Origin: an uncultured candidate division Zixibacteria bacterium
Lineage (GTDB): Bacteria; Zixibacteria; MSB-5A5; GN15; FEB-12
Assembly: GCA_963806185.1 (NCBI GenBank)
Contig: CAWDXE010000001.1
Span: 704,001-768,000 of the forward strand
Reading direction: 5' to 3'
Length of the DNA: 64,000 bases
The notes under the pieces were generated by a model. That model searched no databases. It saw only the letters and a program-made list of their open reading frames with translations, and had not been told where the DNA came from. Positions 2,740-47,039 of this stretch are shown here, piece by piece; within the stretch, counting starts at the first letter, position 1, and every line of letters starts with the position of its first letter. Made by a program: the position numbers and the translations under genes.

Positions 2740-3399
2740 TCAGAACCGATAGCCAAGAGTGAACGCCAGGCACCTGTTCTTCATGTAGTCGTCGGTTATC
2801 ATGTGGTAGATATCTGCGGGATCCTCAGCCTCCAACAATCGGTTCCATTCCGCCGGATCATAAGCGTTGACCATACCAACTGTATATCTGATATCGAACA
2901 CCAGATGTCGGTAGTCAACCGCCCCGCCAATGGCGATGCCGACATCAAAACCCTTCATGGCATTTTTGGTATCGATGACATCTGATATCACAGACCCCCT
3001 GAAGTCCGCCGACATCAGGATACTCATCGCCGGACCCAGGTACACTGACGGTTTCAGCTTGCCGTTAACCGACAGACAATACTTCAAGACCACCGGGACT
3101 TCCAGATAGTTGTGCCTCCAGCGTCGCCCGCCCAGGATGCCACCGCCGGCCCCTTTCTCAACGTAGATCAACTCCGGCTGCAACGCCACTTCTGGTGTGA
3201 GATTGTAAGTCAGGAAGACACCAATAACTGGCCCCGCGTAACTGTCATATCCCTCAAACTCATCGATCGATGTGCTGAGGGTAGAAAACCCGAGCCCCAG
3301 TTTAATCCCCTTGCCGGAGATTCCCGGGATCTTTCCCTCCGCCTGAACGCTCAGACACAGCACGAGTAGGATCGACAACGCGGCAAGAAACGGTTTCAT
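2740..3399 (-). CDS. Porin-family / outer membrane beta-barrel protein (OMP_b-brl_2/PorT-like)
   Basis: Signal peptide, 'LQPELIYVEKG', 'NYLEVPVVLKY', 'YLGP', 'DIRYTVG' and C-terminal aromatic 'LGYRF'. Confidence 0.8.
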   Translation of the reverse strand: MKPFLAALSILLVLCLSVQAEGKIPGISGKGIKLGLGFSTLSTSIDEFEGYDSYAGPVIGVFLTYNLTPEVALQPELIYVEKGAGGGILGGRRWRHNYLEVPVVLKYCLSVNGKLKPSVYLGPAMSILMSADFRGSVISDVIDTKNAMKGFDVGIAIGGAVDYRHLVFDIRYTVGMVNAYDPAEWNRLLEAEDPADIYHMITDDYMKNRCLAFTLGYRF

Positions 3400-3939
3400 G
3401 ATCTGTCCTTTCCTATTTGTGTCCGGCCTCACACTCCGGATGTGTGGCCACCCTGAGCCGGAAATAGCTTTTATCCGGACGAATTCCCCGGCTTGGGTTA
3501 CGGTGATTCAATGAGAACATGCCAACGGGAGGTCCGAAAACATTCATACAATTTCGTACGTCCGCACAGAAGTGCCTCATCATAGTTGCAATCGAAAGAG
3601 TCGTCATGATGACACCCGGTGCCGACCTTTTCCCGAATTACCGTTAACAGAATTGCCAATGTCACCATAGTAATGTGGTCAACGAGCGCAATGCAATATT
3701 GAATACCGGCCGGGAGATGACGCCATCAGATTGGCGAAACGGAAAAGCCTATAGAATCAGTATGATATCTCTTGAGATGTGTTTTTGTCAGACTCAACTG
3801 TGGCGTGATGAGTCTTCGTACCCGGTATGATGTCAATTCGCTGGACGGAATCGTTGTCGTGGATTCACACGCCAGTATGGACTGAGAATTGGCCGGTGTT
3901 GGTGTTGCCTTCAACGGAGATGGAGTTGTGGACGGCAAT

Positions 3940-5562
3940 TCATGAAAGGGGGAAGCGAAATTCAAACGTGGTCCCGAATCCGATCCGACTCTCAATCGAT
4001 ACCCCGGCCCCGTGATTCTCAAGAATTCGGGCACAGGTCGTCAAGCCGTAACCATGTCCCTGCGGCTTGGTAGTGAGGTGGATCTTGAACAATTTCTCCC
4101 TCACCTCGGGAGTCATTCCCCTACCGTTGTCCGAAACCCGGAGAACCAGCTCACCTTTGTCCAGACACGTGGACACGATAATGATGCCGTCGCGACGACC
4201 GGTCTCGAGGATGGCGTCGGCCGCGTTATTGATGATATTGATAATCACCTGAGCAATCTGATCCCGGTCCACCTGCAGCTCGGGCAGCTGCGGAGTCAGA
4301 TTGGCATTCAGTTTTATGGCACTGAATCTCTTCTGGATAGCCGCGAACGATATCACATCGGTGACGATATCGTTCATTAACGCGGGCAGCTTCTGCGGAT
4401 TAATTCGAGCATAGTCCATCAGACCGGCTGTGAATCGCTCCATGCGGGTGACACTGTCGCGCAATTTGACAAGTGTTTCTTTGAGCTTGGGTTGATTCCC
4501 CCGGTCCAACGCGATCATCGCCAGTTCAACGCCCCCAAGAATCATCCCCAGATGGTTGTTCAGCTCGTGAGATATAGACGACGCCATGACACCTCGTTCG
4601 GCAAATTTCTCCAGCTCAAACATCCGGCGTTCGTTACTGATTTCTTCTGTCTTGTCGTCCAGCGTGATGATCATACCCTTTTCGGACGCCGAGAGCTCAA
4701 CACCGAGGCGCACGCTGACGCTGAACACTCGTTCTCCATCCGCACCCTTCGCAATCATCGCCGCAGGCAAACGGGCCGATTGATCCGTCTGAAGCTTGCG
4801 CAAGCGCTCAGCCCATCCGGCGTAGACGTCATCGGGAAATACGGTTTCAATGCTTCCACCGATTTCGAGGGAGTCTCCGGCTCTGCCCCTCGTTGACGCC
4901 GTCAGGTCATTGGCCGCCCGGTTGGCGGAAACCAGCGTGCCGCCGCTGTCGAACACGAGCATCGCCTGGCGGACACTGTCAAGAATTTGAATGTGGCGCG
5001 CACTCAATGCTGCCATCTCGGCGTAAATTACGGTGGTTGCGAGAAGCGGCGTGATGCTGGCGACGAAATGCTGAAGGAGTTGGAGATTCTCGTCAGAACA
5101 CTCCCGGTCTCCGACGCAGGGCCCCATCAGGATAGCGCCGATCGCCGAATCGTTCACGACCAGGGGCACAAATAACCGTACGCCCAGCGTTTTCCACTCC
5201 ATCAGAATCTCAGCGTCACCGTCATCCGGATTGAGCTCACTCAAATCAATCGGCCGGGGGGCGGCCATGGCCTCTGCAAATCTCAGCGCGGCGCGAAGGT
5301 GCCCTATACTGACCGACCACCCGCGAAATTTCCCTATTGCAGAGTGGGTGACCTTCCGAGTATCGAGATTGTTGTTTCGGGTCAAAATCACCGCACTGGT
5401 GACGGCGAACTGACCTGCCACCGACAGGGCGACCGAATCAATGAGTGTCTGCAGATCGGGGTTGTGAGCAAACTGGTCGGCGAGGCTGGACAGGGCCTCG
5501 AAGCCGAGCACTTTGCGCTCTTGCTCGTATGACCGGTCTGCGTACGTCGGCGTATTGCTCAT
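3940..5562 (-). CDS. Cytoplasmic GAF/PAS sensor histidine kinase
   Basis: H-box 'SISHELNNHL', N-box 'NIINNAADA', G1 'SDNGRGM', G2 'GHGYGL'; GAF-like 'LFVPLVVNDSAIGAILMG' and PAS-like 'ILDSVRQAMLVFD'; no TM segment. Start could extend to 5613. Confidence 0.88.
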   Translation of the reverse strand: MSNTPTYADRSYEQERKVLGFEALSSLADQFAHNPDLQTLIDSVALSVAGQFAVTSAVILTRNNNLDTRKVTHSAIGKFRGWSVSIGHLRAALRFAEAMAAPRPIDLSELNPDDGDAEILMEWKTLGVRLFVPLVVNDSAIGAILMGPCVGDRECSDENLQLLQHFVASITPLLATTVIYAEMAALSARHIQILDSVRQAMLVFDSGGTLVSANRAANDLTASTRGRAGDSLEIGGSIETVFPDDVYAGWAERLRKLQTDQSARLPAAMIAKGADGERVFSVSVRLGVELSASEKGMIITLDDKTEEISNERRMFELEKFAERGVMASSISHELNNHLGMILGGVELAMIALDRGNQPKLKETLVKLRDSVTRMERFTAGLMDYARINPQKLPALMNDIVTDVISFAAIQKRFSAIKLNANLTPQLPELQVDRDQIAQVIINIINNAADAILETGRRDGIIIVSTCLDKGELVLRVSDNGRGMTPEVREKLFKIHLTTKPQGHGYGLTTCARILENHGAGVSIESRIGFGTTFEFRFPLS

Positions 5563-5590
5563 GGCTATTTTGCTCGTTACATGACGCCTG

Positions 5591-5944
5591 TCAACGCGTG
5601 ACACAGACGGCAAGAGCGGCCTCTCTGGTTTCCTTGATAGACAGGAAGTCGAGCAGGTCGAGCACCCCTAACACGTGACTGATCGTAGCGGACACGTTGC
5701 ACAACACGATGTCGCCGCCCACGTCGCGGAAGGATTCAATGGTGCCGAGAATTGCTCCAACGCCCGCAGAAGAGAGAAACTCGAGCCTTTCGCAGTCCAG
5801 GATGACAAAGCCACAACCTCGCTGCCGTGCGCCTACGATGGCTTGAACGACTGCCTCGGCGTTGTTGTTATCAAGCATAGTACCGAGAAGGATCGAGCTG
5901 ATGTGCTCCGTGATCGGCTGTTCGCAAAAATTAGTCACACTCAT
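5591..5944 (-). CDS. STAS-domain anti-sigma factor antagonist (RsbV/SpoIIAA-like)
   Basis: 117 aa; 'ILDCERLEFLSSAGVG' carries the phosphorylatable Ser. Confidence 0.9.
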   Translation of the reverse strand: MSVTNFCEQPITEHISSILLGTMLDNNNAEAVVQAIVGARQRGCGFVILDCERLEFLSSAGVGAILGTIESFRDVGGDIVLCNVSATISHVLGVLDLLDFLSIKETREAALAVCVTR

Positions 5945-5945
5945 A

Positions 5946-6713
5946 TTAGCAGCGCCATTTCTTAGTCACGGTGAGGACATTGCGTGACTCTCCGTCACGT
6001 TCATAAGCAACACTATCGGCAAGCTGGTGAATCATCGGCAGTCCAAAACCTCTCTTCTGTCGGCTGTGGGATGCCGCAGCGGCATCGAGACGGTGTAGCT
6101 TGGCAGTTGGGTCGAAGTACTCTCCGGCATCGACGAACGTGATGGTCAGGGCATCTCCGTCGGCAACTGCGCGGACCTGAAATCTATCCTGCCCTGTTAA
6201 GCCGGAATGTATGCGAATATTTGTGGCAATTTCATAGAACATCGTACGCAGTTCCAGAATAGTGGTGGCACTGGCGTGGATATCCGCGAGAAACGCCATG
6301 AAACGGGCCAAGGCAGCGTCAATGTCGTCAATAACAGCCGGGATGTCGTCGGCAAACGACTTCGATGCCTCAAGCCTTGGCTGGTCGTGCTCCACCTGCC
6401 GCCCGAGCCATGGGGCGGCACCCTCGTATTCGAAGGCGTCCTCCAAATCCAGCAGTTGAAGAATTCTAAGAAGAGCCTGAGGTGGATTGGATAGTCGCAG
6501 AGGGATGCCATGATCATGACAAAGAGTATGCGCGCTCCAAAGCATGTTAATATGACTTGAGACTACGCGCTCAAGTGAACGGCAGTCCATCCTGAGCAGA
6601 GTGGGGTTGCCGGCGATTGCCTCACGCACCACCTGGTCGAAGCCACTCAGGGTGCCCGGCGAAATATCGCATGGCAGCAGAATAGTGTGAATCTGATTAG
6701 CGAGCAGCGACAT
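5946..6713 (-). CDS. STAS + RsbW/SpoIIAB-like Ser kinase (HATPase_c_2) fusion
   Basis: N-terminal STAS ('MDCRSLERVVSSHIN'); C-terminal 'EIATNIRIHS', 'FVDAGEYFDP' and 'RGFGLPMIHQLADSV'. Confidence 0.85.
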   Translation of the reverse strand: MSLLANQIHTILLPCDISPGTLSGFDQVVREAIAGNPTLLRMDCRSLERVVSSHINMLWSAHTLCHDHGIPLRLSNPPQALLRILQLLDLEDAFEYEGAAPWLGRQVEHDQPRLEASKSFADDIPAVIDDIDAALARFMAFLADIHASATTILELRTMFYEIATNIRIHSGLTGQDRFQVRAVADGDALTITFVDAGEYFDPTAKLHRLDAAAASHSRQKRGFGLPMIHQLADSVAYERDGESRNVLTVTKKWRC

Positions 6714-8301
6714 ACTGTCTTTCTTTCGGTGTATCTGTCGGTTGATTAGTGAGCCGTCGGGCCCATTTCAGTGAGACTAGGGTAATATCGTCGGCTTGTG
6801 GCGATGCACCCACAAATGACTCGATATCATCCATGATCGCTCGTGTGAAATCGGCCGCGGGCAGGGCCGCACTTCTGTTTGCGATCGATAAGAAGCGATC
6901 CATGCCGTATTCGGCATTGCTTGCGTTCATCGCCTCGTTGATTCCATCAGTGTAAAGGACGCACCAATCGTCATCTGCTAATTGAATCTGACCCGACTCG
7001 ATACGCCGGTCAAATTGATCGGCACTCATCAGTCCGAGCGGGTATCCCTTCGTCTTAATCAGTCTTTGCTCCTGCGTCGCCGACACGACGTGAATGAGTG
7101 GATTATGTCCGGCCGATGCGAATCTGAGTAATCCCGTGGTAGTGTCGAGTATACCGCAGAACATTGTCACAAACGTGCCCTTGCGCACTTCGGGTAACAG
7201 ATCCTTGTTGACGGCCGAAAGCAATTCGGCCGGTCCGACGCTTCGACGGGCATGCTTCAGGACCAGATCGCGAGTCAATAGCATAACCAGCATGCCGGGA
7301 AGAGATTTTCCGGACACGTCGCCGATGATGACGGCGAGTTTATCAGCTCCCAGCTCGATAAAATCAAAGTAATCACCCCCAACTGTCCGGGCGCTTCGAT
7401 AGGTTCCGGCAAATTGGTATCCGTCGCCCTCGGGATAGCTCTTGGGCAGGATATTCGATTGAATTTCACGAGCAATGTCAAGTTCGCGGCTCATGCGATC
7501 CGCTTCCACAGCCAGTTGTTTGGCATGCTCAAGCCTGGTCCCCATCACTCGAAGCGTGTCGGCCAGGAATCCGAATTCGTTCTTGTCGCGTACGGGCGGG
7601 TCCAGAGTCAGAGAACCCGTCTCGACGTTGCGTAGCGAATCGGTGATCAGGCTCAACGGCCTGAGCCGACGTCGGAGGACGACGGCGGTCAGAGCGACAC
7701 CTATGGCGGCCATGACCAGAGTAAACACCGACATGGTGACCAGGGCGGACCGTCGAACGGCAGCGATCTGACGTTTTGAGGAACTGGTGACAAGGGTTCC
7801 CAGAATCAGACCCTGTTCGATAATCGGCACGGCGACGATGATGGAGTCTGCGTTCACCTGGAGAATCTCGCCCTTGCGGAGCGTTCCGTCGTATCCGCTT
7901 GAGGGTATCAGGTGGAAACTTGTCCCGCTGATAACCTGCCGCATATCGGTATGCGCCAGAAACCTGCCATCACCGCCGGCGATCGCGGCCCAGCCGCAAG
8001 GCGGACTCTCAGCTTTTAACTTGCTGCAGATATCGGTTAGCATGAGGACATCGGGGCCGTCTGCGGCAATCACTTGCTTTGCGGCCGCACCCGCTGATGA
8101 CCGCGCCTGGACGAGCAACGTTTCCACGACATTCTGAGTGACGGTCGTCACCAGCTTGTTAGTTATAATGATTCCTGTCACGAGCATGAGGATGACAACC
8201 AGACCGCCGACATAGATTGCGAACTCACGCCGGATCGAACGCCGGTATTTCGACGCCGATGGCCAGGGGAGCATTGGATCTTTCGGGGCCTCACTCGTCA
8301 T
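6697..8301 (-). CDS. Membrane-bound HAMP + SpoIIE/PP2C (RsbU-like) protein phosphatase
   Basis: Two TM helices flank a ~130-aa extracytoplasmic domain; HAMP ('RPLSLIT...NEFGFLA'); PP2C motifs 'VGGDYFD', 'IGDVSGKS', 'SAGHNP', 'YTDGINEA' and 'DDITL'. Confidence 0.92.
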   Translation of the reverse strand: MTSEAPKDPMLPWPSASKYRRSIRREFAIYVGGLVVILMLVTGIIITNKLVTTVTQNVVETLLVQARSSAGAAAKQVIAADGPDVLMLTDICSKLKAESPPCGWAAIAGGDGRFLAHTDMRQVISGTSFHLIPSSGYDGTLRKGEILQVNADSIIVAVPIIEQGLILGTLVTSSSKRQIAAVRRSALVTMSVFTLVMAAIGVALTAVVLRRRLRPLSLITDSLRNVETGSLTLDPPVRDKNEFGFLADTLRVMGTRLEHAKQLAVEADRMSRELDIAREIQSNILPKSYPEGDGYQFAGTYRSARTVGGDYFDFIELGADKLAVIIGDVSGKSLPGMLVMLLTRDLVLKHARRSVGPAELLSAVNKDLLPEVRKGTFVTMFCGILDTTTGLLRFASAGHNPLIHVVSATQEQRLIKTKGYPLGLMSADQFDRRIESGQIQLADDDWCVLYTDGINEAMNASNAEYGMDRFLSIANRSAALPAADFTRAIMDDIESFVGASPQADDITLVSLKWARRLTNQPTDTPKERQYVAAR

Positions 8302-10303
8302 ACGACAGCTCCTTCAGTTTTTCAATCTCGTTACGCGTGCGACGGGCATAGGCCGCGATCTCAGAGTTGTTCGGCGCAACTTTGAGCGCCTTTTCCCATA
8401 TCGTCAGTGCCTCGCGCAGACGATTCTGCCCGTATAGGTCCACACCCACAAAGCGATATGCCTTTAAGAGGTACTCCCGCACCGATTGATAGCCGGGGGC
8501 GAGTCGTTCCACTTCTTCCCATGCCTCAATAGCCTGCGACAGGTCGCCCCGGTTGAAGGCGGTTTGGGCTTGATCATATGAATGTTGTACCTGCTTGAGA
8601 ACGTCGCGGCTCAGAGCGACCGCCTTAACGGTCGGCATCTTCAACCCCGATTGCAGGTTCTGGATTTCGTTTCGACAGGTCTTCTGGAGTTCGAGGCATC
8701 GTGCCTGGCCGGGGAACCGAACCAGCGCCGAGTCAAGCAGGTCTATGGAACGCTGATACTCCCTATTGACCATTTCCTTTTCCGCGGTCGCTTTGAAGCA
8801 CTCGAATTCCGCCTTCTTGAGCGCAACCTGAGCAAGCGCATTGTCGGGTGCCATGTTGTGCAGGGACTGAGCGGCTGTCAACGCCTGTATGGGGGCTCCG
8901 TAACTTATGAGGGAGTCGATCAACCAGACTCGCCGCTGAACAAATTCCTGCTGTCGAGCAACTTCGGCGCTCGCTTCAGCAGCTTGATGCGACATGTCCA
9001 TCGCCTCGGTCGAGGTCGAATCCACAGAAAGGGCCAGGCCGGCGAAATACCGGCATCCTGAGAAGTCGAGCGCCGCCAGATGGGCCCGCGCTGAGTCAAG
9101 ATGCGCGGCCAGCTCAATTCGTCGACTCGTTTGAAGAATCTGGGTGCGTACTCGTGCCGCCAGCATTGCGTACTCAGTAGTATCGATACCACTGTTGCGT
9201 GCAAGGAACAGGGCACGATCGAAGCTCGCGTCGGCGGCGGCCAGATCACCGGCGGAAAGGGCTCGTTTGCCCGATTCCAGAAGCTCGTTAGCCCGCTCCC
9301 CGTTCTTCTGGGTCAATCGTTCGCTCATGAGCCGATTGAAGGCAGCCTCTCGGCGCTCGGCACGAATGGAACGTCTTTCACTCACCGACTTGCCGATGCT
9401 CGTGGTCAGGGAAATCATGTGCAGTGCACCCAGCTCCCGATCCACCATAGCATAGTCAAAACTAATGCCGTTATACGAAATGCCGGCCCCACCGGAGAAC
9501 TTGTCTTCCTGAATACTGCCGCGGAGTTGCAGAATGTCGAAGAGTGAGAGTTCCAGTCCAAGAGATCCGCTGCCGGGAGTATTATCCCGTTTCGTGAGAC
9601 CACCGCTTATTTCCAGCGTTTGCCGATGATCCGGACTCATCAGCAACATACCGCTGAGCCCGGCTTGAAATTCAAACGGCGATTTGATCGACTCGTCGAC
9701 TAGGCGCATCGACGGCGCGATGATATTTCTTCCCACCAAAGTGAGACATATATCGTCGCACCAGCCGTACGGCGAGGGTATCTTTCTGGTGGCCGCTATG
9801 TCAAGGCCCGGCGTCGAGGTTGCTTTGTAGGTATCAAGCGAATGTGTTTCGATCGAGAACGTTGCACCCAGATCGAAAGAGCCGACCGACCGACCGTACG
9901 CCAACCGCAGTCCGAGGCGGCTGTCGGAGATTGAATCCAGCAGGAGATTCGATGCGTCGCGCTTCTCGATACCGTCGATGCCCAGTCGAGTGATCCCTAT
10001 GCCCAGCGATCCCCAATCCAGTGTGGGAAGAACAAGGCCGAGATACTGGTAAGTCACGTCAGAATCAAACAAGCGCGAGTGGAAACCCATAACCGTGTAC
10101 TTCTCTGCCCGGGCCAGACGGGCCGGATTCCAGAAGGGTGCGGTGGCATAGTCGCAAACCGCTACATCGGCGCCTCCGAGGGCCAAATCGCGCGCGCCGA
10201 CCCCAAACCCAAACGGCGACGCGGCGCCGCCGGTCTGCGCCAGAGTTCCGGTGCCGGCAAACAACAGCAAAAGCAAGCTGGCGAAAGTAAGAGACGTCTT
10301 CAT
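8291..10303 (-). CDS. PorV/PorP/PorQ-like (FadL-fold) outer membrane barrel fused to a C-terminal TPR/helical region
   Basis: Signal peptide; 'GVGARDLALGGA...A.FWNPARLA' PorV-family N-terminal motif; 'FDYAM...LGALHMISL' barrel end; then ~350 aa helical/TPR ('AIEAWEEVERLAP', 'ALTIWEKALKVAP'). Confidence 0.8.
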   Translation of the reverse strand: MKTSLTFASLLLLLFAGTGTLAQTGGAASPFGFGVGARDLALGGADVAVCDYATAPFWNPARLARAEKYTVMGFHSRLFDSDVTYQYLGLVLPTLDWGSLGIGITRLGIDGIEKRDASNLLLDSISDSRLGLRLAYGRSVGSFDLGATFSIETHSLDTYKATSTPGLDIAATRKIPSPYGWCDDICLTLVGRNIIAPSMRLVDESIKSPFEFQAGLSGMLLMSPDHRQTLEISGGLTKRDNTPGSGSLGLELSLFDILQLRGSIQEDKFSGGAGISYNGISFDYAMVDRELGALHMISLTTSIGKSVSERRSIRAERREAAFNRLMSERLTQKNGERANELLESGKRALSAGDLAAADASFDRALFLARNSGIDTTEYAMLAARVRTQILQTSRRIELAAHLDSARAHLAALDFSGCRYFAGLALSVDSTSTEAMDMSHQAAEASAEVARQQEFVQRRVWLIDSLISYGAPIQALTAAQSLHNMAPDNALAQVALKKAEFECFKATAEKEMVNREYQRSIDLLDSALVRFPGQARCLELQKTCRNEIQNLQSGLKMPTVKAVALSRDVLKQVQHSYDQAQTAFNRGDLSQAIEAWEEVERLAPGYQSVREYLLKAYRFVGVDLYGQNRLREALTIWEKALKVAPNNSEIAAYARRTRNEIEKLKELSYDE

Positions 10304-13300
10304 CGCACCACCGCAACCTTTCGCCTGAATGTCTCGGTCCGTCCCGAATCATAGGTCGCGATTATGCGACAGAAATAGACTCCGGGCACGACGGTTCGGC
10401 CGTCGCCGTTCATCCCGTTCCAGGTGTCACTCTGATAGGCACCAGCCGGGCGAAATGACTGATTGGAAATCCGAGAGACGGCGTCTCCGGTGATGGAGAA
10501 TATGTCTATGTCTACCATGGCATTCTCAGTCAGGACAAAGCCGATGGTTGTAACTTCCCCCCGCCCCGGGTTGAACGGATTGGGATAGTTCGTGAAGGAT
10601 GTCTCGAGTTCCGCCGCCACAATTGATATCTCACCGGCCGCAACGGGATACGTCGTGCCTGAGAGAACTGGATATACCGGCGTCTGCAGGCTCTTATCCA
10701 CAACGGTGATGAAGGACGAATCAAGAAAAGTAAGCACGATATTTCCGGGTTCGGCATCACCGGACAGATCGCAGGTCACGCGGATTGGCACACTCTCCCC
10801 GCGACTCATCGTTACGGGCGTCGACGCGATAATGGCAAGTGTATCGCCGGTCATCATGGTATCAGTGCCAATCTCTGCGCCGCCAATTTCCATGTGGAAT
10901 GCCGCCACAGACGCACTGATCGGACCGGCCGCGGAACCAGTTGAGACTCTGCGGCTCAGCGCAGCGGTCATTCCGCGAATTTCAATCTGCCCCAACGGAG
11001 AAGAAGATTGATACGCCAGTGTGCCCTCGAAAATGGTGACTTTGTGAGTTCCAGCGGGAGCCATTTGCACGGGTCTCACGGTTCGGACGGCAATTGGCCG
11101 ACCGGCCGGGAGTAATATAGACGTCGTGCCGGTCGTAAAGGGGAAGGTGGCAACACAACCGGCCGCCGCATTTGCCCCGACCGTTCGGCTCGGATCGCTC
11201 ATGTCATTGATGCTGAAGTCGGTCAGCCCGACTATGTGAAGGGCAAATGATCCGTAGGGCGCCTCGAGCCGGAAATCGCCCACCAGATCTATCTGAAGAC
11301 TATCGCCGGCCGACAGCACCAAACCGGAATCCGCCAACGTCAGGTCCATCGCCCCTCCCGGTGCCGGCACGATTTCACAGTCTCGAATTGCGCCACCATT
11401 GACGCTGACGCCCATTTTGTCGAATAATTGATCCGGATCGATTCCGCCGCCGCTGCCGTCCTCAATCTTCAGGTTCAGCCGGCTCAGTCGCACAGCCGAA
11501 TGTTGAGGCAAGGTGGGATACGTCACGCCAAGGGAGACCAGCGGCACCGCTCCGGCGCCACCGGCGATTGATGACGGCGCGATATCATCGAGGCAGATTG
11601 AGACCGGCTCGGCGGGCAACCGGAACGCTGACCAGTTTGATACGATCGGGAAGACATTGCCGCTCGCCAACGTAGTATCTGAGACAGCCAGCAGGGCCGA
11701 ACCGGTGTTCAAGTCCCGCACGGTAAACAGACTGCTATCGGCAATCCGGAGTTGGAATCCGGCCGCCGGAACTGATGGTCTGACGGAAACTGCAACTACG
11801 ATGGAATCGATCTCCTGTGCCGATAGATTCACGGGAGTGGATAATGGTATATCAATGTTTGACGAATCCTGAAACGCGAGTGTCACTTCACCGATGAGGT
11901 AGTTGTGTCGCCAGACAGTCAGCTTGCTGAAGAGATCTCCGGCCGGCAATCCGTTCCCGATTGAGTCAGTGACTTCCAGTGATACTTCAGTCAACTGCAC
12001 CGCGGAGCTTCCCGATTCGCCCCCATGTCTCACCAGCAATTTGAGAATGTTTGCGTCCTGCTGGCCGTTGTTGATTGTCGGCAAGGTGCAGGAAGCGGCT
12101 GAAACGGCAATCTGTTGAGACGGTTCGTCGATTCGCGTGGATGCGGTCCGCATGGGATACGTGACAGATTGTGCATTTGGAACCGTTTGTCCGGTGTTGG
12201 CATCAAGCAGCGGTATCCATGACGCACTGTCTACTGATATGCTGAAGTCAGGCGCGACAGTACTGGGGACAATATCGACGATCAAGAGGAGTGTTTGTAC
12301 GCCGCTCGGCCCAATTGACACCGGATGACTGAAGGCAAGCTGCACTGCTGATTCAGTTGGAACCGTCGTGAGCACCGAGAGAATTTCATATCCGGCCGCT
12401 ATCATCATCCGGCTGAAAACTGAGTTGGCTGGAACTGCGGCTCCCTGCCCATCGGCCACACGGAAACGCAGGTATTGAATCTCCATGGCCGCTACGGCCG
12501 TACTGGTGTCCGGATGGGCACATTCCAGGGTCATGGGAAAGATATAGCTCTGGCCCTTTGTTACCGCGGTGGGACTGGTATTGAGCAACCGCGGCGTGAC
12601 GGGAGATATCGCGCGTTGAATGCACGACGGAAGTGTTTGAATCAGGATTGAGGAGTCCACGGGTGCTCTTGAAACCGCCTGGAATGACCAGGATTCACGG
12701 CCTTCGCCGGTAGCTGTGAAATAGAAATGGCGGGTGATCGATTCGCCTGACGCCAGATTCACCGGGCCGTTCGAACTGCTATCCAGCCGCACGAGCGACG
12801 GATTCTCTATCTCCACCAGACTGGCGAACACGGAGTCAATCGGGCTGCCCGTGAGATTGGTGACGGTAAGGGGGACCTCGATCGATTGGCCCACAGAGTA
12901 CGTCTCCCGCATCGGTCCCAGCGAAACTTTCAATCCCGAAGTCGACACCGTGAACGTACCCGGCGCCAAGATTGACGAATCGATCGGACCGTCGTTGTCC
13001 GATTCAAAGTCACAGCCTGCTTGCGGAATCTCCAGCCGGATGGTGGCATTCGGCTCCGCCGAGATCGCAATGTCTCCTGCAATGAATAGTTGGGGCGGGG
13101 TTGACGAAACAAACAAGCCCAGGTCACTCAAGGACCACGTCCCCGCACCATAGGCGAATGAGCCCAGCATCGAATCACCCGCATCGAGCTGGTGATTGGT
13201 ATTGACGTCGTGCCACAGGGAAAGCTCCGCAATGGTCGTATTGTTGGCCGTCCCGAGATTGCTCACATATATATTGTGGAGCCAATCCGGCCGATCACCG

Positions 13301-16300
13301 TTGAAGGCCGGAGAGAACGACAATAGAACAACATTGGTATCACCCGGAGCCAGCGAGCGGCCGGTGGGGCCATAGATCGCGTACTGACGCCGAATAGAAC
13401 CATCGACGACAAGCTCTCCCCGGCTGGAAAGTGGTAAGTCACCATTGAGATTGACAATCTCGGAAAACGAGAAATTAGTAGCCTTCGCAATAGTGGTTGA
13501 CAGCGTATCGCCATCAATCGGATCGAGCGGCAGATCGGAGATGACAAAGAAATACGCCAACGACTCAGGCGGGAGCGTGGCGGTGAACCCCTCAAACCGC
13601 AATGTCCCGTTGGAAAACAGTCCCGTCCCGATAAGCTGATCGTTGTCCAGAATCCGGTTCCGGTTGGTGTCCCAGAATAATGACACTTGACCCAATTCGT
13701 GATCGGCAAAATCCGTCGACCCAGCCGAGCGAGTGCTGTTGGTGAGCGTCAATTGAGTCAGCGTCTTCGGCTGACTGACATACCCGTTGTACAGGGCAAA
13801 CGTCAAGAGCCCCAGATCGGCCGAACCGGGATATACCGGCGCCGACGGAGTGGGAATCGATATTGCGGTCACCCGGTTTGACGGGAAAATGAGAAATGAT
13901 GACGTATTGGCGACCGCGACATCATCCGGTCCCGTCGTCCCGGCGGTGGTCGTCACACCCAGCGGCGGAAGGTCAAGACGCAATGTCCCGCCTTCGAATT
14001 GCTCTGCCGAGACAGATGTCGTGACGACAAATCGATTTAGCGGCGAATCCAGGGCAGTGCTGATGCCGCTGAGTCTCCATTCCTCCCCGATCAACCCGAA
14101 TTGCCCGACCGCTGCATCATCGGTGCTGAATCCGTTTCCAGTGCGATCTTTCCAGAGCCGTACGTTTTCCAGCACATCATGTTCAGACAGGGTGCCCGAA
14201 TTCACAACCTTTATGGACGTCAGCCTGTCGGCCGCGTAACCGTTGCGGGGAATTTCGAAATCCAGAACCGGTTGATCGACCTGCCCCGCGTAAAGATTGC
14301 CGGATGGGAGCGAATGTACGACCACCGCTGCCGCCGGGAAAGCGTCGATCGAGAATGTCGATGGATTCGTCAGCGGAAAACTACCGGTCAACCTGACCGC
14401 CTGATCAAATACTATTGCCGACGAGTCCGCCAGCGAGAAACCGATCGAGTTGCCATTCTTACACTTGAGTAGACTAAGCTTTGCCGCCACCACGACAGTG
14501 CAGCTTCCGCCACTTCCTGCTACCGCGAGCCCTCCTACATGAAAGTCGGCGTAACCGCTTTGCACGCGGCCGAGGGTAACCAACGAGTCAGCGGCGGATA
14601 TCGATCCCGGTACGCCGTCACGGTCGAGATACAAGTAGACCGAGTCGACTTGCGATGCCAGTTGTGCCGCGCTCGCGCCCTGCGGGTCGGTGCCCAGAAA
14701 CGCAAAGCGACACGAATCTATGGCGACTGACTGCGTGTATCCATTGGTCATTTGTATTGCGAAAAGCGGCCCGGTCGACTGGCCGGGAATGCAGGGATGG
14801 GCAGACACGGCCACCCTCGACGCAATGATTGCCTGCGGCCCCTCAATAGTGAGTGTGTCCGGAGAAGGTACCTCCTGATCGATCGGCCCATCGTTGCCCG
14901 AGCTGACGCGAATACCATCTATCGGAACCGCCAGTGCCACGGTCGCGCCGTCATTCGGATACCGATTCAACCTGGCGGCGACAAAAAGCCTCGACGCTGG
15001 GTCGTCCAAGGTGAGCGCCAGGCCGCCTCGCGACCAGCTTTCACCGTTGAATACCATGCTGCCAAGTGAAGATTCTGCGGACGAGCCACCCCAGAGACCA
15101 TCGCCGTCGTCCGCAAAGATCACGAGCGAATCGAAATCGGTTTCAGAAGAAGTTCCAGCGTTGACAAGGGTGATGGCCCTGAGCGTATCAGCGTCGTAGC
15201 CGTTGCGCGGCAAATCCAAAGTCAGACAGAGCTGGAGACTGTCGGCTACGGTCAGCGTACTGAAACCCGTCGAGACGGCCGTGACTTGTGATGCCACCAA
15301 ACCGTTCACCTCGGTTAAGCCCAACGAATTTGACAGCGGCGGCCCCGCGACGATCGTCAGATCGGCGGTCTCGATATCCGCTCCGGGAATCAGGGCAACA
15401 TCGACAGTATCACCATCCCTCGCCATCATTGCGGATACAGCCGTGATAATGAATGTAAGGCCGCTGTCCGCCGGTATTTCGATAGGTTGAACGGCAAACG
15501 CCATCTCACCCGACCCGTATGCGGTCTCGGCCAACAGGCTATCGGCAACGGAGAGCAATGAATCATCGTCGCGGTCGACATACAGCCGCGCCGCCACCAT
15601 GTTGGCCGCCAGTTGCTCAGCTGTCCCCGTTCCCGTCGACAGATCCCGGACTGCCATCGCCGTCACGGTCTTCGAAGCGCTGAAGTAATTGTCGATTCGG
15701 AACTCTGCGACCGGCGCCTCAGCACCGTCAGGATGAATCGTGCCGTTACCAAGCGGGATCGTTGAAAAATACAGTTCCTCCACGCGAAGGTCTGCAGTGG
15801 TATCGACTATGCCGGCTATCTGGTTGCTCACACTCACCGCGCCGAGCCCGGGAGCAGTGGCAATGTATGTTCCGGATGCGTCGATTCTCCCAACTCGCCC
15901 GAGCGACCGCCAGGACACGACTCCCGGATCAGTCGCGTTGCCGAGACTATCAAGTCCAATGGCCGTGAATTTGATCGTGTCGCCAATGCCTGCCCGAACT
16001 GAGTCCGGCTCCACTCTGATACTCACCAGCGGTCCGGGTATGACAGTGATAGTGCCGCTCGTGTCGACCAATCCGCCCGCTTCGACGACAACATGGCCGG
16101 TGCCGGTTGTTTGGGCGGTGAATAGTCCATCTGCGGCGATTGTACCGAGACCGCCCAACATGTCCCAGGCAGTGACAGGCTGGGGAACCGTGATATTGTG
16201 ATCTGCGTCTCGCGAAACCATTTCAAAGCGGAGTGAATCGCCTGCTTGCAGCGTTCCCGTATCCGGAATAATCTCCAGCGAAACCGGCTCGCCGCTCGAT

Positions 16301-18261
16301 ACGGTAATGTCACCGGTGGTATCAGCCAGACCGCTGGCGTGCACGGCAACAACCTTGATCAGCCCGAGTCTGCGTAATGAGAGAACCGTGGACGGTCCGG
16401 TGTTTGGCGTGAGTTCACCGATTGATGGAGTACCGAGCAGGCTCCAATCGACCGACACATCGCTGATTAGATTATTGAGAGCGGTATAGCCACGGGCAAA
16501 AAGTTGGGTTGTGTCATTGTCAGTGGTGACCCCAAGAGTGTCTACCACCGTGCCGTCGAAGAGTTCGATTCGCACATGATCGAGACCACCACCGAGGGTG
16601 ACGCTTACTTCTCCCGAATCTCTGATACCGCTGTATGAAGCCTTCACCCAGTAAGAACCGATCAGCCCCGCAGTGTACAGACCGCTCGCGCTGATGTTCC
16701 CAACGATATCAGTCGTGTACCAGCTCACTGAATCGGTGTAATCCGCGATGAAGTTCGCCAAAGCGTCGTACCCCAGGGCGGAGTACTGATGAGACTCCAG
16801 CGTCGGGACAACATTCGTCGACGGTAGCACATCGATATTCGCCAGCGGCCCCGGGGTCACCCGGATCGTGTCGCTTTCCGCGCTCAGTCCCAGAGTATCC
16901 TGAACGGTGATCAATCCTGATCCCGAATGCGCTGCAACGAACAGTCCAGTCGAATCAATCTCGCCTATGTTGCCGCTGACATTCCAACTGAGCGTCCCGA
17001 CATCCGTAATAGTATCACCGTGCTGATCCAGGCCGATCACCGAGAACAACTGAGAATCGCCGGCCTGAATTGTCAGACTGTCCGGAATGATCTCCAACGC
17101 CACCGGAGCACCCGCTTTGACGTACATGGGCCCGGATTGCGCAGTGACGCCGTCGATATTGGAAGTGACAGAGATAAACCCCGTACCGGCACGGTCAGGA
17201 ACAAAGAGACCGGTCGAATCAACGGAACCAGTAGCAAACGTGTGCGACCAGGTCAGAATACCTTCGGGTGCAGGATTGTCTGCACTGTCGTGAGCTATGG
17301 CTATGAATTGGTACGTGGAGTCGCTCGACAGCGTATCCAGCAGGGGCAGAATTGCCAGATGGTCCAGCCCGCCCGTCTCTAAAGCGCCGAGATCCGGGGC
17401 GAGTCCGGTGTACGCACATCCGATATCAATGCCGGCGTCGATAGCCGGCGATCCGAAATCGAGGTGAAAGTCACCCGCCGCCGTATCGACGAACAATGGA
17501 TCCAGCGACAATCCGCCCGCAGAGTCCGCCACGCCCCCAAAGAAGTCTCCGGCGTTGTTGTCCCAAAGCAGATTGAAGGCGCAGATATTGCCGGTTACAC
17601 CCGAAATCCCTTGAACGCACGATGCAATGATGTTGTCAACGATGCGGGCTGTGTTTTCGTTCACCTGGATATCGATACCGGTGTTGGCGACGTAGATCGT
17701 ATTGCCGAGAATCGATGTGCTTTTCGCGTCATGCAGATTGTACACACCAGCTCTCCCTGAGCGAAGCAACAATGAGCGAACAACACGGTTACCCGAACCT
17801 TCGATCTGGATAGCATTCTCTTTAGCATCGTGAACATAACAGTATGCGATGACACACGAGTCTCCCTCGACTCGTATGCCGTGCTTCCTTGTTGACAACA
17901 GTTCCAGTCCTTCGACACGGATGAACGACTCTGAGAGTGAAATGATCGTGATATCATGATCCTGCGCATCAATGGTCGGTAGGCCACCGTATCCTCGATA
18001 GACAATTGGAGCCACCGCTGTTCCGTGGGTTTTCAAATCAATTGTACTGCCGACGGTATACACTCCGGAGAGAATATTGATAGTGTCACCAGGATGGAGG
18101 AGATGATCTTCTTCGCCATTGTCAATCGTTGCCCAGGCTTCTGTTTCACTCAATCCCGATTTCGAATCGTCTCCCGTGGGTGCGACAAAATACGACGTCG
18201 CGCCTGCGGACATCGCCAGAGACGAGATGAGCACCACCCTTTTGAGCAGCCGATATATCAT
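10300..18261 (-). CDS. Giant (2653 aa) secreted/surface protein: beta-helix + Ig-like repeats + Ca-loop-bearing repeats + FlgD-Ig C-terminal sorting domain
   Basis: Signal peptide; 'YFVAPTGDDS..G.SE..AW.TI' and 'DFHL..GSPAIDAG' (pectin-lyase-fold beta-helix); Big_2-like repeats; repeated 'L(W/Y)xDxDxD/NG' loops; C-terminal 'NYPNPFNP...WNG...G...VPGVYFCRI...KVAVVR'. Confidence 0.88.
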   Translation of the reverse strand: MIYRLLKRVVLISSLAMSAGATSYFVAPTGDDSKSGLSETEAWATIDNGEEDHLLHPGDTINILSGVYTVGSTIDLKTHGTAVAPIVYRGYGGLPTIDAQDHDITIISLSESFIRVEGLELLSTRKHGIRVEGDSCVIAYCYVHDAKENAIQIEGSGNRVVRSLLLRSGRAGVYNLHDAKSTSILGNTIYVANTGIDIQVNENTARIVDNIIASCVQGISGVTGNICAFNLLWDNNAGDFFGGVADSAGGLSLDPLFVDTAAGDFHLDFGSPAIDAGIDIGCAYTGLAPDLGALETGGLDHLAILPLLDTLSSDSTYQFIAIAHDSADNPAPEGILTWSHTFATGSVDSTGLFVPDRAGTGFISVTSNIDGVTAQSGPMYVKAGAPVALEIIPDSLTIQAGDSQLFSVIGLDQHGDTITDVGTLSWNVSGNIGEIDSTGLFVAAHSGSGLITVQDTLGLSAESDTIRVTPGPLANIDVLPSTNVVPTLESHQYSALGYDALANFIADYTDSVSWYTTDIVGNISASGLYTAGLIGSYWVKASYSGIRDSGEVSVTLGGGLDHVRIELFDGTVVDTLGVTTDNDTTQLFARGYTALNNLISDVSVDWSLLGTPSIGELTPNTGPSTVLSLRRLGLIKVVAVHASGLADTTGDITVSSGEPVSLEIIPDTGTLQAGDSLRFEMVSRDADHNITVPQPVTAWDMLGGLGTIAADGLFTAQTTGTGHVVVEAGGLVDTSGTITVIPGPLVSIRVEPDSVRAGIGDTIKFTAIGLDSLGNATDPGVVSWRSLGRVGRIDASGTYIATAPGLGAVSVSNQIAGIVDTTADLRVEELYFSTIPLGNGTIHPDGAEAPVAEFRIDNYFSASKTVTAMAVRDLSTGTGTAEQLAANMVAARLYVDRDDDSLLSVADSLLAETAYGSGEMAFAVQPIEIPADSGLTFIITAVSAMMARDGDTVDVALIPGADIETADLTIVAGPPLSNSLGLTEVNGLVASQVTAVSTGFSTLTVADSLQLCLTLDLPRNGYDADTLRAITLVNAGTSSETDFDSLVIFADDGDGLWGGSSAESSLGSMVFNGESWSRGGLALTLDDPASRLFVAARLNRYPNDGATVALAVPIDGIRVSSGNDGPIDQEVPSPDTLTIEGPQAIIASRVAVSAHPCIPGQSTGPLFAIQMTNGYTQSVAIDSCRFAFLGTDPQGASAAQLASQVDSVYLYLDRDGVPGSISAADSLVTLGRVQSGYADFHVGGLAVAGSGGSCTVVVAAKLSLLKCKNGNSIGFSLADSSAIVFDQAVRLTGSFPLTNPSTFSIDAFPAAAVVVHSLPSGNLYAGQVDQPVLDFEIPRNGYAADRLTSIKVVNSGTLSEHDVLENVRLWKDRTGNGFSTDDAAVGQFGLIGEEWRLSGISTALDSPLNRFVVTTSVSAEQFEGGTLRLDLPPLGVTTTAGTTGPDDVAVANTSSFLIFPSNRVTAISIPTPSAPVYPGSADLGLLTFALYNGYVSQPKTLTQLTLTNSTRSAGSTDFADHELGQVSLFWDTNRNRILDNDQLIGTGLFSNGTLRFEGFTATLPPESLAYFFVISDLPLDPIDGDTLSTTIAKATNFSFSEIVNLNGDLPLSSRGELVVDGSIRRQYAIYGPTGRSLAPGDTNVVLLSFSPAFNGDRPDWLHNIYVSNLGTANNTTIAELSLWHDVNTNHQLDAGDSMLGSFAYGAGTWSLSDLGLFVSSTPPQLFIAGDIAISAEPNATIRLEIPQAGCDFESDNDGPIDSSILAPGTFTVSTSGLKVSLGPMRETYSVGQSIEVPLTVTNLTGSPIDSVFASLVEIENPSLVRLDSSSNGPVNLASGESITRHFYFTATGEGRESWSFQAVSRAPVDSSILIQTLPSCIQRAISPVTPRLLNTSPTAVTKGQSYIFPMTLECAHPDTSTAVAAMEIQYLRFRVADGQGAAVPANSVFSRMMIAAGYEILSVLTTVPTESAVQLAFSHPVSIGPSGVQTLLLIVDIVPSTVAPDFSISVDSASWIPLLDANTGQTVPNAQSVTYPMRTASTRIDEPSQQIAVSAASCTLPTINNGQQDANILKLLVRHGGESGSSAVQLTEVSLEVTDSIGNGLPAGDLFSKLTVWRHNYLIGEVTLAFQDSSNIDIPLSTPVNLSAQEIDSIVVAVSVRPSVPAAGFQLRIADSSLFTVRDLNTGSALLAVSDTTLASGNVFPIVSNWSAFRLPAEPVSICLDDIAPSSIAGGAGAVPLVSLGVTYPTLPQHSAVRLSRLNLKIEDGSGGGIDPDQLFDKMGVSVNGGAIRDCEIVPAPGGAMDLTLADSGLVLSAGDSLQIDLVGDFRLEAPYGSFALHIVGLTDFSINDMSDPSRTVGANAAAGCVATFPFTTGTTSILLPAGRPIAVRTVRPVQMAPAGTHKVTIFEGTLAYQSSSPLGQIEIRGMTAALSRRVSTGSAAGPISASVAAFHMEIGGAEIGTDTMMTGDTLAIIASTPVTMSRGESVPIRVTCDLSGDAEPGNIVLTFLDSSFITVVDKSLQTPVYPVLSGTTYPVAAGEISIVAAELETSFTNYPNPFNPGRGEVTTIGFVLTENAMVDIDIFSITGDAVSRISNQSFRPAGAYQSDTWNGMNGDGRTVVPGVYFCRIIATYDSGRTETFRRKVAVVR

Positions 18262-18296
18262 GTTTAGTTATCTGCCCCTACCCCCGATTAACTTAT

Positions 18297-18323
18297 TTAT
18301 CGGCACCCACTTAAAGATGTTGA
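18297..18323 (-). promoter_or_regulatory. Sigma28 (FliA/SigD)-type promoter upstream of the six-gene operon
   Basis: Minus strand TCAA-catctttaagtgggt(15 nt)-GCCGATAA: perfect -10, correct spacing, 3/4 match at -35; about 35 nt upstream of ATG 18261. Confidence 0.65.
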
Positions 18324-18863
18324 GCGCGCAATCCAGACGGCCAGGATTGCGTCATAAAACCGGAGGTCTTTAGGTCTCATTTACGCGTCTCATTCCTGAA
18401 GAATGCCCCGGGCTGCAGCATCGGCTGATAACCCCTTGGCGTCCTGCCAAGTACCAGCGGTCACCCCCTCCCCTTCGCTTAAGGTAATCGTCGAACCCTG
18501 CCGGATGCCGATTGTAGCGATCTATGGGTGAGAAAGTCGTTGGATAGGTTGAATCGGAATATATGCTGAAGTATAGCAGTACTTGATCGGCCGATGCCCA
18601 TTGGCACGACTCAGTAGAGGCCGACGTTCATAAGTAAATCTTCCAACGGAGAACACCAGAATGAAACGGTCGCTCGTTCTCATTTGTGTCCTGATCAGTA
18701 GCCCTTTCACCGTGGATCACTTTGCACAACGTCCGCATAAGACACATATCATTGTCCGGCTGTTGCGACAACGCGGCCTGCACCCACGATTCGCAATTAA
18801 GACTACTCTTCTGCCGATTCTGTCGCCCCACCTTCTGGTTACCGACACCATCCACCTTCTGTC

Positions 18864-18891
18864 TTGACTCATCCGACACCCGAGATATATT
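18864..18891 (+). promoter_or_regulatory. Putative sigma70 promoter for the gene at 19007
   Basis: TTGACT-N16-TATATT. Confidence 0.4.
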
Positions 18892-19006
18892 GTAGATACG
18901 ATCATCTCCCATCGTAACTGTAGGCACTCTGTCATTTGAAAAATATCAACCGACACCCGGCGATGGCTATTTGCCGGGGCATTTCTTCTTTCGAAGGAGA
19001 ACCAAT

Positions 19007-33555: not shown

Positions 33556-34933
33556 ATGCAAGAGTTACTAGCTACATTAATACGCTGCAAAACGGTGAGT
33601 CGCCCTCTGGCCGTAATCGCGCTACAAATCGCCTTTCTGGGCGTCGCGGTTGCCGCTGTTGCCCAACCGGGAAACTCCGATAGCCTCACCCTGCCGCAAG
33701 TAATTCACGAGGTCCTCAGTCGGAATGATCGTGTTGCGGCCGCCCGCTTCATGCAGGAATCAGCCGAACGAAAAGCCTCCTCAACCGGAACGTGGGACGA
33801 CCCCATGCTCATGCTGGCCGTGGAAAACCTGCCCACCTCTCTGGACTTCAAAATGGACGATATGACTATGCGCGTCACCGGTCTGAGCCAATCGATCCCC
33901 TACTCCGGTTATAAGGGGCTCGAGCGCAAAGCCGCCCGTGCCGACGCCCAGGTCTCCACGGCGCAACTGCACATCACCACACTCGATCTGGTCACGGCCG
34001 CCAAGCAGGCGTACTTCGATTTGTACTATCGGCAAGCGAACCTGCGCGACCTTCAGCAACAGCACGAATTGTTGGAGCAGGTCGTCGCATCCACTACCGC
34101 CAAACTTCGTACCAATCAAGCCGGGCAAGACGAAGTCCTCACTGCCCAAGCCGATCTCTGGCGCCTTGAATCGTCCCTGTTGTCGCTTCAGCAGCAGGTC
34201 GATGCAGCCCGGTATAATCTGAACAGTCTGCGCGGTCTCGAGCCGAATGCTTCGGTCTTGCCGCTCGCGACGCCGGTTCTGTCGACGCCGCCCGATTCCC
34301 CGGCTTCCTGGATTGAGTCGGCCGAAAAAAGCTATCCCGAGTTGCGTCAACTTGATCACCAGGCAGAAAGCTACCGCCTATCGGCAACGGCCGCCCGGCG
34401 TATGCAGTGGCCGATGCTCACCCTCTTTGGCAGTTATGGTTACCGCGACGGGCTCTCAACTCGCCTGATGGCCGATCACGAAATTCAGAGTCGAGCCTCG
34501 GGGTGACATGATCAGCTTTGGCGCCAATATCTCACTGCCGATTTTTAGCCGGGGAAAACAGCGCCAGATGGCACGGTCCATGGACGCAATGAACAGGAGT
34601 ACGCTGGCCGGCGCCAAGCAACTTCGCCGCGATATTCGCGCCAATCTTGCCTCGTTGCACTCACGTGCTTTGCGCCTCAATCAGAGCCTGGCCTTGTATC
34701 AGGATCGGATACTTCCGGCCACCCGGGAGGCCTACCGCTCGACACTGGCCGGCTATACCACCAATCGAACTCCGTTTGCGTCGGTCTTGAATTCGGCTGT
34801 CGCTGTCTATCGCGATCAATCGACTATTAATGATCTGAATAATGAACTGGCTCGCACGCTGGCTGAGGTCGAACGATACACCTCCGATCCATCAGCCTGG
34901 GATACCACCGGTGATTCACATAGCGATCAATAA
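33556..34933 (+). pseudogene. TolC/CusC-like outer membrane efflux protein split by a +1 frameshift (real or sequencing error)
   Basis: ORFs 33556-34506 and 34508-34933 encode consecutive parts of one OMF. Removing 1 nt near 34488-34490 gives the continuous reading ...EIQVEPRGDMISFGANISLPIF... Confidence 0.75.
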
Positions 34934-47013: not shown

Positions 47014-47039
47014 TCGCCGCGCACTGCGGATTGATGAAA

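Follow-up and report, generated by a model that had tools for sequence, protein, structure and literature searches.

In this study, we investigated a block of six genes in a 64,000-nucleotide stretch of DNA (hereafter, the window) from an uncultured candidate division Zixibacteria bacterium (assembly GCA_963806185.1, contig CAWDXE010000001.1, positions 704,001 to 768,000 of the forward strand), whose genome is about 82% complete. All six genes lie on the minus strand, and from first to last they encode a giant secreted protein of 2653 aa, called the cargo here (10300-18261), an outer-membrane barrel of the PorV fold with a tetratricopeptide repeat (TPR) tail (8291-10303, 670 aa), a HAMP-PP2C/SpoIIE sensor phosphatase (6697-8301, 534 aa), a STAS-RsbW fusion (5946-6713, 255 aa), a stand-alone STAS protein (5591-5944, 117 aa) and a GAF-PAS histidine kinase (3940-5562, 540 aa from its ATG, or 557 aa from a TTG at 5613). 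As the initial annotation of the window had described, these co-oriented genes overlap by 4, 11 and 17 nt and are then separated by gaps of 1 and 28 nt, and the coordinates of the open reading frames (ORFs) agree; the domains it had assigned were likewise upheld by Pfam and NCBIfam profile matches for all six genes. No Rfam family was found within 3300-19200.

The block proved to be conserved when its neighbourhood was followed through relatives, which was the check that the initial annotation had proposed, and the lack of synteny that it had named as a refutation was clearly not borne out. We searched 285 genomes of the phylum, and these genomes are related, so the counts given are of non-independent events. 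Full-length barrel orthologues with 40-66% identity were observed in 18 of 60 relatives, those close barrel homologues for which a taxon is named are from Zixibacteria, and the gene order was kept in all 20 of the 20 barrel-anchored loci as far as their contigs reach. To avoid selection on the barrel, a profile of the STAS-kinase fusion was used as the anchor, and it matched in 81 of the 285 genomes. Out of its 83 matches, 20 belonged to the first locus set, 3 within 600 bases of a contig start were excluded, and 60 were analysed. Phosphatase, tail, barrel and a C-terminal domain (CTD) were present in 47 of the 50 loci having at least 4.2 kb upstream, the STAS gene and the GAF kinase in 53 of the 57 having at least 1.3 kb downstream, and the complete set of six, in the same order, in 41 of the 47 informative loci; at locus L102, no phosphatase was seen within the 600 bases before the contig end. 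As a rough control, generic PP2C loci (80 among the matches listed, many of them short) were inspected, and a PorV-type barrel adjoined in three, all of which belong to the sister module described below. The gene system is real and widely conserved, beyond what chance would give.

The barrel had been labelled PorV/PorP-like, and the PorV half of this label stands while the PorP/SprF half does not. Its score against NF033709, the PorV/PorQ family, is 64.5 bits, under the cut-off of 90, with a TPR match besides, and its predicted structure (mean local confidence, pLDDT, 87.8; predicted template modelling score, pTM, 0.53) comprises an N-terminal plug and 14 strands followed by a TPR tail that is entirely helical and about 360 aa long. 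The best structural matches were PorV chains (8gl6_F, Z 31.7, root-mean-square deviation (rmsd) 3.3 over 283 residues; 6h3i_F, Z 31.4, rmsd 2.8 over 278 residues), and the next was FadL (Z 29.2), the present barrel being 14-stranded and FadL-type with an N-terminal plug. Because the strand count is even, barrel topology predicts that the TPR tail, to which aa 430-670 belong, lies on the periplasmic side. PorP/SprF identity was rejected, as the fold is that of PorV and the barrel has no match to PF11751, a model for which this genome holds no match over the cut-off. The cargo stop and the barrel start overlap or abut in the orthologous loci inspected for this, with a 4 nt overlap here. The barrel likely binds the cargo CTD and holds the cargo at the surface, docking on SprA and CTD binding being suggested by the fold and the gene order.

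The cargo consists of a signal peptide (recognised by eye), a beta-helix head (residues 23-295), five Ig-like repeats (302-822) and six stalk repeats (851-1771), and its C-terminal part holds more beta-sandwich domains and then a CTD of the kind seen in type IX secretion systems (T9SS), which takes up the last 105 aa and ends in RRKVAVVR. Profile matches from Pfam and NCBIfam comprise the beta-helix and a weak FlgD_ig-type CTD. Head composition differs among 41 complete orthologues of 1876-3386 aa, with 0-3 beta-helices and 0-8 Ig repeats, and exactly six stalk repeats are found in 39; in a protein atlas these repeats fall into clusters without names, where BNR_assoc_N occurs in 13% of members and is a lead only. 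The best-conserved part is the last 100 residues, that is, the CTD, with 57% identity against 31-48% elsewhere, and locus L034 displays another cargo body with the same CTD class. The last 500 residues were modelled as a chain of beta-sandwiches (pLDDT 89.6). In structure the CTD comes closest to that of PorU (Z 11.6, rmsd 2.2 over 93 residues), followed by that of PorZ (Z 10.6), both only modestly ahead of other Ig-like folds (Z 9-10). Weak matches (E <= 0.01) to TIGR04183 were obtained in 52 of 64 orthologous cargo C-termini, that of the present cargo lying below the cut-off, and the type B model TIGR04131 matched none of the 64; type B identity was rejected on this ground. In both model and profile, then, the cargo CTD resembles the PorU/PorZ/type-A-like class rather than type B. 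The initial annotation had likened the pair to a T9SS cargo with a cognate PorP/SprF-like barrel; the gene order bears out a comparison with such type B pairs while the CTD type and the barrel family do not.

Within this genome, a PorV-family barrel lies directly 3' of 6 of the 25 CTD genes that are not type-A-like, against 0 of the 34 that are, the tree of these CTDs being poorly resolved. Eight CTD paralogues, each about 810-860 aa long, end in GK.V.I and have no adjoining barrel (C7:493584, C7:496172, C1:851734, C4:436601, C4:442103, C6:22033, C6:128712 and C8:74342); in that tree they cluster with two barrel-linked cargos. With respect to the secretion machinery, a SprA translocon scores over the cut-off in this genome (C4:96285-102386) and in 207 of 209 well-assembled genomes of the phylum, and this genome also has a PorU-like gene and, in the PorV family, 10 matches over the cut-off. 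Of the components of the PorK/N ring and the PorL/M motor, GldK and GldM (TIGR03525, PF12081) were searched, in this 82% complete genome alone, and gave no match; possibly, judging from gene content, the T9SS here works without the known motor. SprA, PorU-like and many PorV-like genes, together with cargo-specific barrels, are found here in a phylum for which the literature searched places no T9SS.

The three proteins that the initial annotation had named an RsbU/RsbV/RsbW-type partner switch display intact catalytic and phosphoacceptor motifs. The phosphatase is laid out as a transmembrane segment, a single periplasmic Cache domain at aa 46-188, a second transmembrane segment, HAMP and PP2C/SpoIIE, with two main hydrophobic segments, and its metal-binding aspartates D310, D313, D328, D452, D504 and D505 are invariant in 36 of 36 aligned sequences. 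The sCache_3_2 model matches 51 of 129 members of the phosphatase family, this phosphatase not being one of them; the closest solved sequence to its Cache domain is DcuS (E 0.005), and the SiaA model NF038263 gives it 52.4 bits against a cut-off of 700. The fusion combines a degenerate STAS domain with a serine kinase of the RsbW/SpoIIAB type (HATPase_c_2), in which E161, N165, G197, G222 and G224 are invariant in 18 of 18 sequences; in the proposed switch it is the kinase opposing the phosphatase. The stand-alone STAS protein is of the anti-anti-sigma type (TIGR00377 over the cut-off), with D50, S58, S59, G61 and G63 invariant in 26 of 26 sequences; Ser59 is likely the phosphoacceptor, a position that we take by analogy with SpoIIAA/RsbV.

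The histidine kinase harbors PAS, HisKA and HATPase_c domains and no membrane segment, so it is soluble; its N-terminal GAF domain was recognised from Pfam matches in relatives and a profile match, and its N-terminal helices are strongly conserved (61 aligned sequences). In 10 of 70 orthologues the protein is a longer hybrid that includes a receiver domain, and beside the simple forms no gene matching the receiver profile was found. The GAF domains of this kinase and of the sister-module cyclase are related with a probability of 98% in a profile comparison. At two loci (L109:3727-6536 and L113:3826-6611), STAS-RsbW and STAS form one protein of 382-385 aa, and L109 has it with the kinase and without phosphatase, barrel and cargo. 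Other PP2C/RsbW/STAS clusters occur in this genome at C4:190868-199045, C7:598673-600738 and C3:20832-23167; the C4 cluster is near fragments of a related GAF kinase, and cross-talk is possible.

A sister module was also recognized, with the order cargo, barrel-TPR, fused RsbW/phosphatase, STAS, often a GAF-GGDEF diguanylate cyclase, and polysaccharide export genes. The copy in this genome (C7:500996-513368, L036) encodes a 986-aa CTD cargo, a PorV-TPR barrel, an RsbW-Cache-HAMP-PP2C protein, STAS, GAF-GGDEF, Wza, a TPR protein and a CpsD-type kinase; its barrel is split by a frameshift and its fusion is shorter than those of relatives, breaks that may be assembly errors. The sister-module marker occurs in 232 of the 285 phylum genomes and is absent from five families. 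Among 20 near sister loci anchored on the barrel, the CTD was found in 20, the phosphatase in 19, the cyclase in 18 and STAS in 12. A distant set was anchored on the phosphatase (40 of 54 matches analysed, 39 judged upstream and 33 downstream), and here cargo, barrel and tail were present in 30/39, a stand-alone TPR protein only in 7/39 and neither in 2/39, with STAS and cyclase downstream in 22/33. In other phyla, among the 80 loci listed as closest to an Eisenbacteria-type query by the sister STAS motif, CTD, barrel, tail and kinase/phosphatase were found in 39 of the 42 with at least 9 kb upstream; record titles among these matches name Eisenbacteria, Krumholzibacteriota, Latescibacterota, Calditrichota, Goldiibacteriota and others. 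Judging from this gene order, the module architecture has outlived an old duplication. In loci L120-L144, from distant families (e.g. L122:7986-12378), the sister phosphatase carries a 260-aa C-terminal extension that looks helix-turn-helix-like by eye, and it is followed by a ParA-like ATPase and then a STAS protein whose basic tail is similar (labels also by eye).

The seven distant loci with a stand-alone tail, which all belong to two families, are of particular weight. In them an ORF of 255-366 aa with a signal peptide (by eye) lies directly before the phosphatase, and cargo and barrel are gone from the locus. Six of these tails score 84-131 bits against the tail profile and the seventh 43 bits, compared with 15-16 for other TPR proteins there; L158 has a short tail piece only. 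In 5 of 5 such genomes searched (98-100% complete), the stand-alone tail gene was the sole match to the tail half; L154 and L155 have the cleanest pairs of stand-alone TPR protein and phosphatase. Since the tail stays by the phosphatase after the loss of barrel and cargo, a pairing of tail and sensor is indicated, and the stand-alone tail is the best evidence in the sequences that points to the two as partners. In those two families the sister STAS gene has been relocated and no longer neighbours the phosphatase, and in 3 of 4 loci the cyclase comes after it, which speaks for a pairing of STAS and enzyme. A tail-less barrel for the families with stand-alone TPR proteins was sought and not assigned, as cargo-barrel pairs lie elsewhere in their genomes with ambiguous orthology. 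Two metagenome contigs (L185, L226) have a secreted TPR gene directly before a HAMP-PP2C gene with no barrel seen, perhaps another tail-phosphatase pair.

Upstream of the block, a motif of the sigma-28 (FliA) promoter type, TCAA-N15-GCCGATAA, lies at 18297-18323 on the minus strand, with its first base 62 nt 5' of the cargo start codon; it was recognised by the sigma-28 consensus, and 18323, where the block ended as first noted, is its first base. The predefined pattern was found 5' of 12 of 40 orthologous cargo genes (mean 0.72 and maximum 4 in 200 shuffles), compared with 0/38 cargo genes of the sister module and 1/144 other genes of the same loci; it also precedes wza in 7/36 sister loci and a flagellin gene. 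A relaxed pattern, which was loosened after the data had been viewed, was found before 24/40 (1.27 in shuffles), and genome-wide, where base frequencies predict about 2.5 strict sites, 16 are present. This enrichment before cargo genes makes it likely, as far as promoter motifs can tell, that the operon belongs to the flagellar regulon. A scan for sigma-70 promoters and terminators gave nothing decisive, with 14 terminator-like sites against 13.6 by chance.

Regarding sigma factors, none of the SigB/SigF type (TIGR02980) scored over the cut-off in the genome, and the best match was FliA, whose gene is in the flagellar cluster and adjoins flhF and flhG-like genes. Matches to PF04539 (sigma-70 region 3) number two in 60 of the 63 carrier genomes, one in 2 and three in 1, and from their lengths the two proteins are likely the primary sigma factor and FliA. 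A SigB-type sigma factor as the target of the switch was rejected accordingly, as none was found and two PF04539 matches are typical of carriers. A divergent FlgM homologue is present in the genome (E 1.7e-10), and the Pfam FlgM model recovers one in no more than 10 of 40 relatives.

These data are best read as trans-envelope signalling, with a proposed and unproven contact at its centre. The cargo would be exported through the SprA translocon of the genome, and a PorV-fold barrel of its own would hold its CTD at the cell surface; the helical tail of this barrel would hang in the periplasm and touch the Cache domain of the phosphatase. Phosphatase and RsbW kinase would then set the phosphorylation of the small STAS protein according to the state of the surface protein, and STAS would switch the neighbouring GAF histidine kinase as SiaC, which activates the cyclase SiaD by binding (PMC8457831), does with SiaD. 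This relay from the state of the surface cargo to the histidine kinase is put forward tentatively, as quite possible and nearly probable. It builds on gene order and its conservation, the folds of barrel and CTD, the catalytic motifs, SprA and the sigma-28-type motif; cargo-barrel binding, the contact of tail and Cache, the direction of the switch and the binding of STAS to the kinase are steps that we infer. The sigma-factor analogy drawn in the initial annotation has turned out weak, because no SigB/SigF-type sigma factor was found and a GAF enzyme follows STAS in both module types, and by analogy with SiaABCD the output is likely STAS acting on the kinase. A wider picture, which we regard as possible and somewhat more speculative, is that of a new class of cell-surface signalling, in which a T9SS shuttle barrel turned receptor would hold a giant surface fibre, read its load or occupancy and signal through a periplasm-spanning TPR arm to a membrane PP2C partner switch. 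It would be ancient, occur broadly among Zixibacteria, Eisenbacteria, Krumholzibacteriota, Latescibacterota and Calditrichota, be served by a T9SS without the known motor, and govern the motile-to-sessile change by way of a kinase or of cyclic di-GMP and exopolysaccharide.

Several observations weigh against this relay. The two halves of the block can come apart, since at locus L109 STAS-kinase and histidine kinase persist where the three genes upstream are missing; L066 and L081 show decay, L086, L097 and L106 lack the GAF kinase, and two distant sister loci have a phosphatase with neither tail nor barrel. The stand-alone tails show, at the level of gene content, that a tail need not be tied to a barrel and that a surface input would not always be needed. 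In a third family (L329), the sister STAS gene has moved alone, without the cyclase, and the likeness of the two GAF domains may be generic. The whole barrel-tail model has a pTM of only 0.53, which limits what can be said of the reach of the tail, and with no GldK/GldM match the SprA export route of the cargo is not explained. Coevolution of tail and Cache was not seen either, as mean-field coupling gave top z values of 6.8 and 5.9 against 5.2-8.4 for shuffled pairs, at a low depth of 129 paired sequences (about 65 and about 115 effective sequences). Cache domains, moreover, often bind small molecules.

This last point leads to the alternative that survives best, though we consider it unlikely, in which nothing is relayed physically: the Cache domain would respond to a small molecule in the periplasm, cargo and barrel would simply be co-expressed with the switch, and the tail would anchor or stabilise the barrel. 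The Cache fold with DcuS as its closest solved sequence, the sensing of alpha-ketoglutarate by chlamydial RsbU (PMC11619594) and the missing tail-Cache coevolution signal at low depth all agree with it, one shared sigma-28-type promoter could explain co-expression, and anchoring has a precedent in the TPR protein PorE, which binds PorP in an anchoring complex (PMC9143113; TPR domain, PMC12773672). However, an anchoring role leaves unexplained why the tail is kept by the phosphatase after the loss of barrel and cargo in 7/39 distant sister loci, and co-expression from that promoter does not account for the sister module, which has the same order without it (0/38) and across phyla.

A secretion checkpoint is a more doubtful alternative, whereby an unexported CTD or an unloaded barrel would signal, the CTD binding Cache with the tail as co-receptor, so that export rather than surface contact is reported. 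The PorA CTD does bind the sensor PorY in the periplasm (PMC12152298), and the CTD is the most conserved part of a cargo whose head is variable, up to the different body with the same CTD class at L034; yet binding to the barrel explains that conservation equally well, and the tail-phosphatase pair persists without an adjacent cargo gene. It is similarly improbable that the same input ends in a sigma factor, with STAS or RsbW controlling FliA via FlgM in the manner of HsbA, which switches between FlgM and a cyclase (PMC5085249), and feeding back on its own sigma-28 promoter, since the motif before the operon, FliA and a divergent FlgM in the genome and the intact anti-anti-sigma motif of STAS are met by the lack of any SigB/SigF-type sigma factor over the cut-off, by two PF04539 matches only in 60/63 carrier genomes (by length likely primary sigma and FliA) and by the GAF enzyme that follows STAS in both module types, although such an output and the kinase output of the proposed relay are mutually compatible.

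Several known systems share parts with the block. Among T9SS barrels, PorQ is the one that pairs with PorZ. Other cargo-barrel pairs are PorV with type A CTDs and PorU, and type B CTDs with PorP/SprF (PMC12618676, PMC9143113), and T9SS cargo genes can be followed by the gene of a cognate shuttle barrel (PMC12618676); the block is alike in having the barrel gene directly 3' of a CTD cargo, a PorV fold, a CTD near those of PorU/PorZ and SprA in the genome. It differs in the fused periplasmic TPR tail of 360 aa and the signalling genes next to it, in a CTD that is not type B, a barrel that is not PorP/SprF, the absence of GldK/GldM from the matches and a phylum outside Bacteroidota. The SiaABCD system known from Pseudomonas aeruginosa (PMC7647112, PMC8457831) likewise has a PP2C phosphatase and a kinase that balance a small target acting on an enzyme of the same operon, so that phosphatase, kinase, target and output enzyme stand in one block, the enzyme being a histidine kinase here (53/57) and a cyclase in the sister module (22/33), which ends in this diguanylate cyclase and polysaccharide export genes. 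In contrast, SiaABCD as described is without outer-membrane barrel or cargo, and the block has a classical STAS serine target and a histidine kinase output.

In PorA-PorXY-SigP of Porphyromonas gingivalis (PMC12152298), a T9SS cargo also feeds an inner-membrane sensor, but the sensor to which the CTD binds in the periplasm is a histidine kinase in that system, whereas here the cargo shares its block with genes for a dedicated barrel-TPR protein and a PP2C partner switch. HsbR-HsbA-FlgM/HsbD (PMC5085249) and SypE-SypA (PMC8256260, PMC3610818) resemble the block in a kinase and phosphatase acting on STAS, with FliA, a cyclase or exopolysaccharide as outputs, and resemble the sister module further in the fusion of both activities in one chain; those systems are cytoplasmic and phosphorelay-driven, whereas the phosphatase of the block crosses the inner membrane and has a link to a protein of the outer membrane. 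RsbU/RsbV/RsbW-SigB and the chlamydial Rsb system (PMC8256260, PMC11619594) share the three catalytic modules with intact motifs, and chlamydial RsbU also has a periplasmic sensor domain; the block differs from them in that no SigB/SigF-type sigma was found, the kinase is fused to a second STAS domain and the whole is linked to a secretion cargo. By these likenesses the block may be seen as combining a T9SS cargo-shuttle pair with a switch of the SiaABCD type, and it appears to belong neither to the type B/PorP-SprF pairs nor to SiaABCD or RsbUVW-SigB.

Outer-membrane proteins with a periplasmic part that control an inner-membrane signalling protein are familiar from FecA-FecR-FecI and YfiBNR. 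The block departs from these as well, with no TonB-dependent receptor, anti-sigma factor or extracytoplasmic function sigma factor and with unrelated folds. In the literature searched, with subscription journals and supplements outside its reach, we found no description of the module and, among the papers listed, none that joins a T9SS with a partner switch or with these phyla, in line with the initial annotation, which knew of no system coupling a T9SS-like cargo/barrel pair to partner switching. The module is thus apparently undescribed, and its newness is argued because the gene set fails every family test and no description was found; if the link between tail and sensor is false, the novelty shrinks to a variation on known parts.

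Elsewhere in the window, positions 40516-48359 encode another large CTD protein of 2165 aa with VWA, Big_9, PKD and Y_Y_Y matches and a type A tail, followed by a GH5 hydrolase, and at 33556-34933 a TolC-type outer-membrane efflux gene of a CusCBA-like block is apparently divided between ORFs of 316 and 141 aa.

It is an open question how bacteria perceive contact with a surface and keep watch on the giant proteins that they secrete, and few routes across two membranes are known. If the proposed relay is true, it would add a route made from T9SS parts and a serine-phosphorylation switch, conserved over several little-studied phyla, one of which, Calditrichota, has cultured members. In most of the Zixibacteria examined, genes for cyclic di-GMP and exopolysaccharide come after the sister copy, and the sigma-28 promoter, if real, would make the module a surface-contact sensor of flagellated cells.

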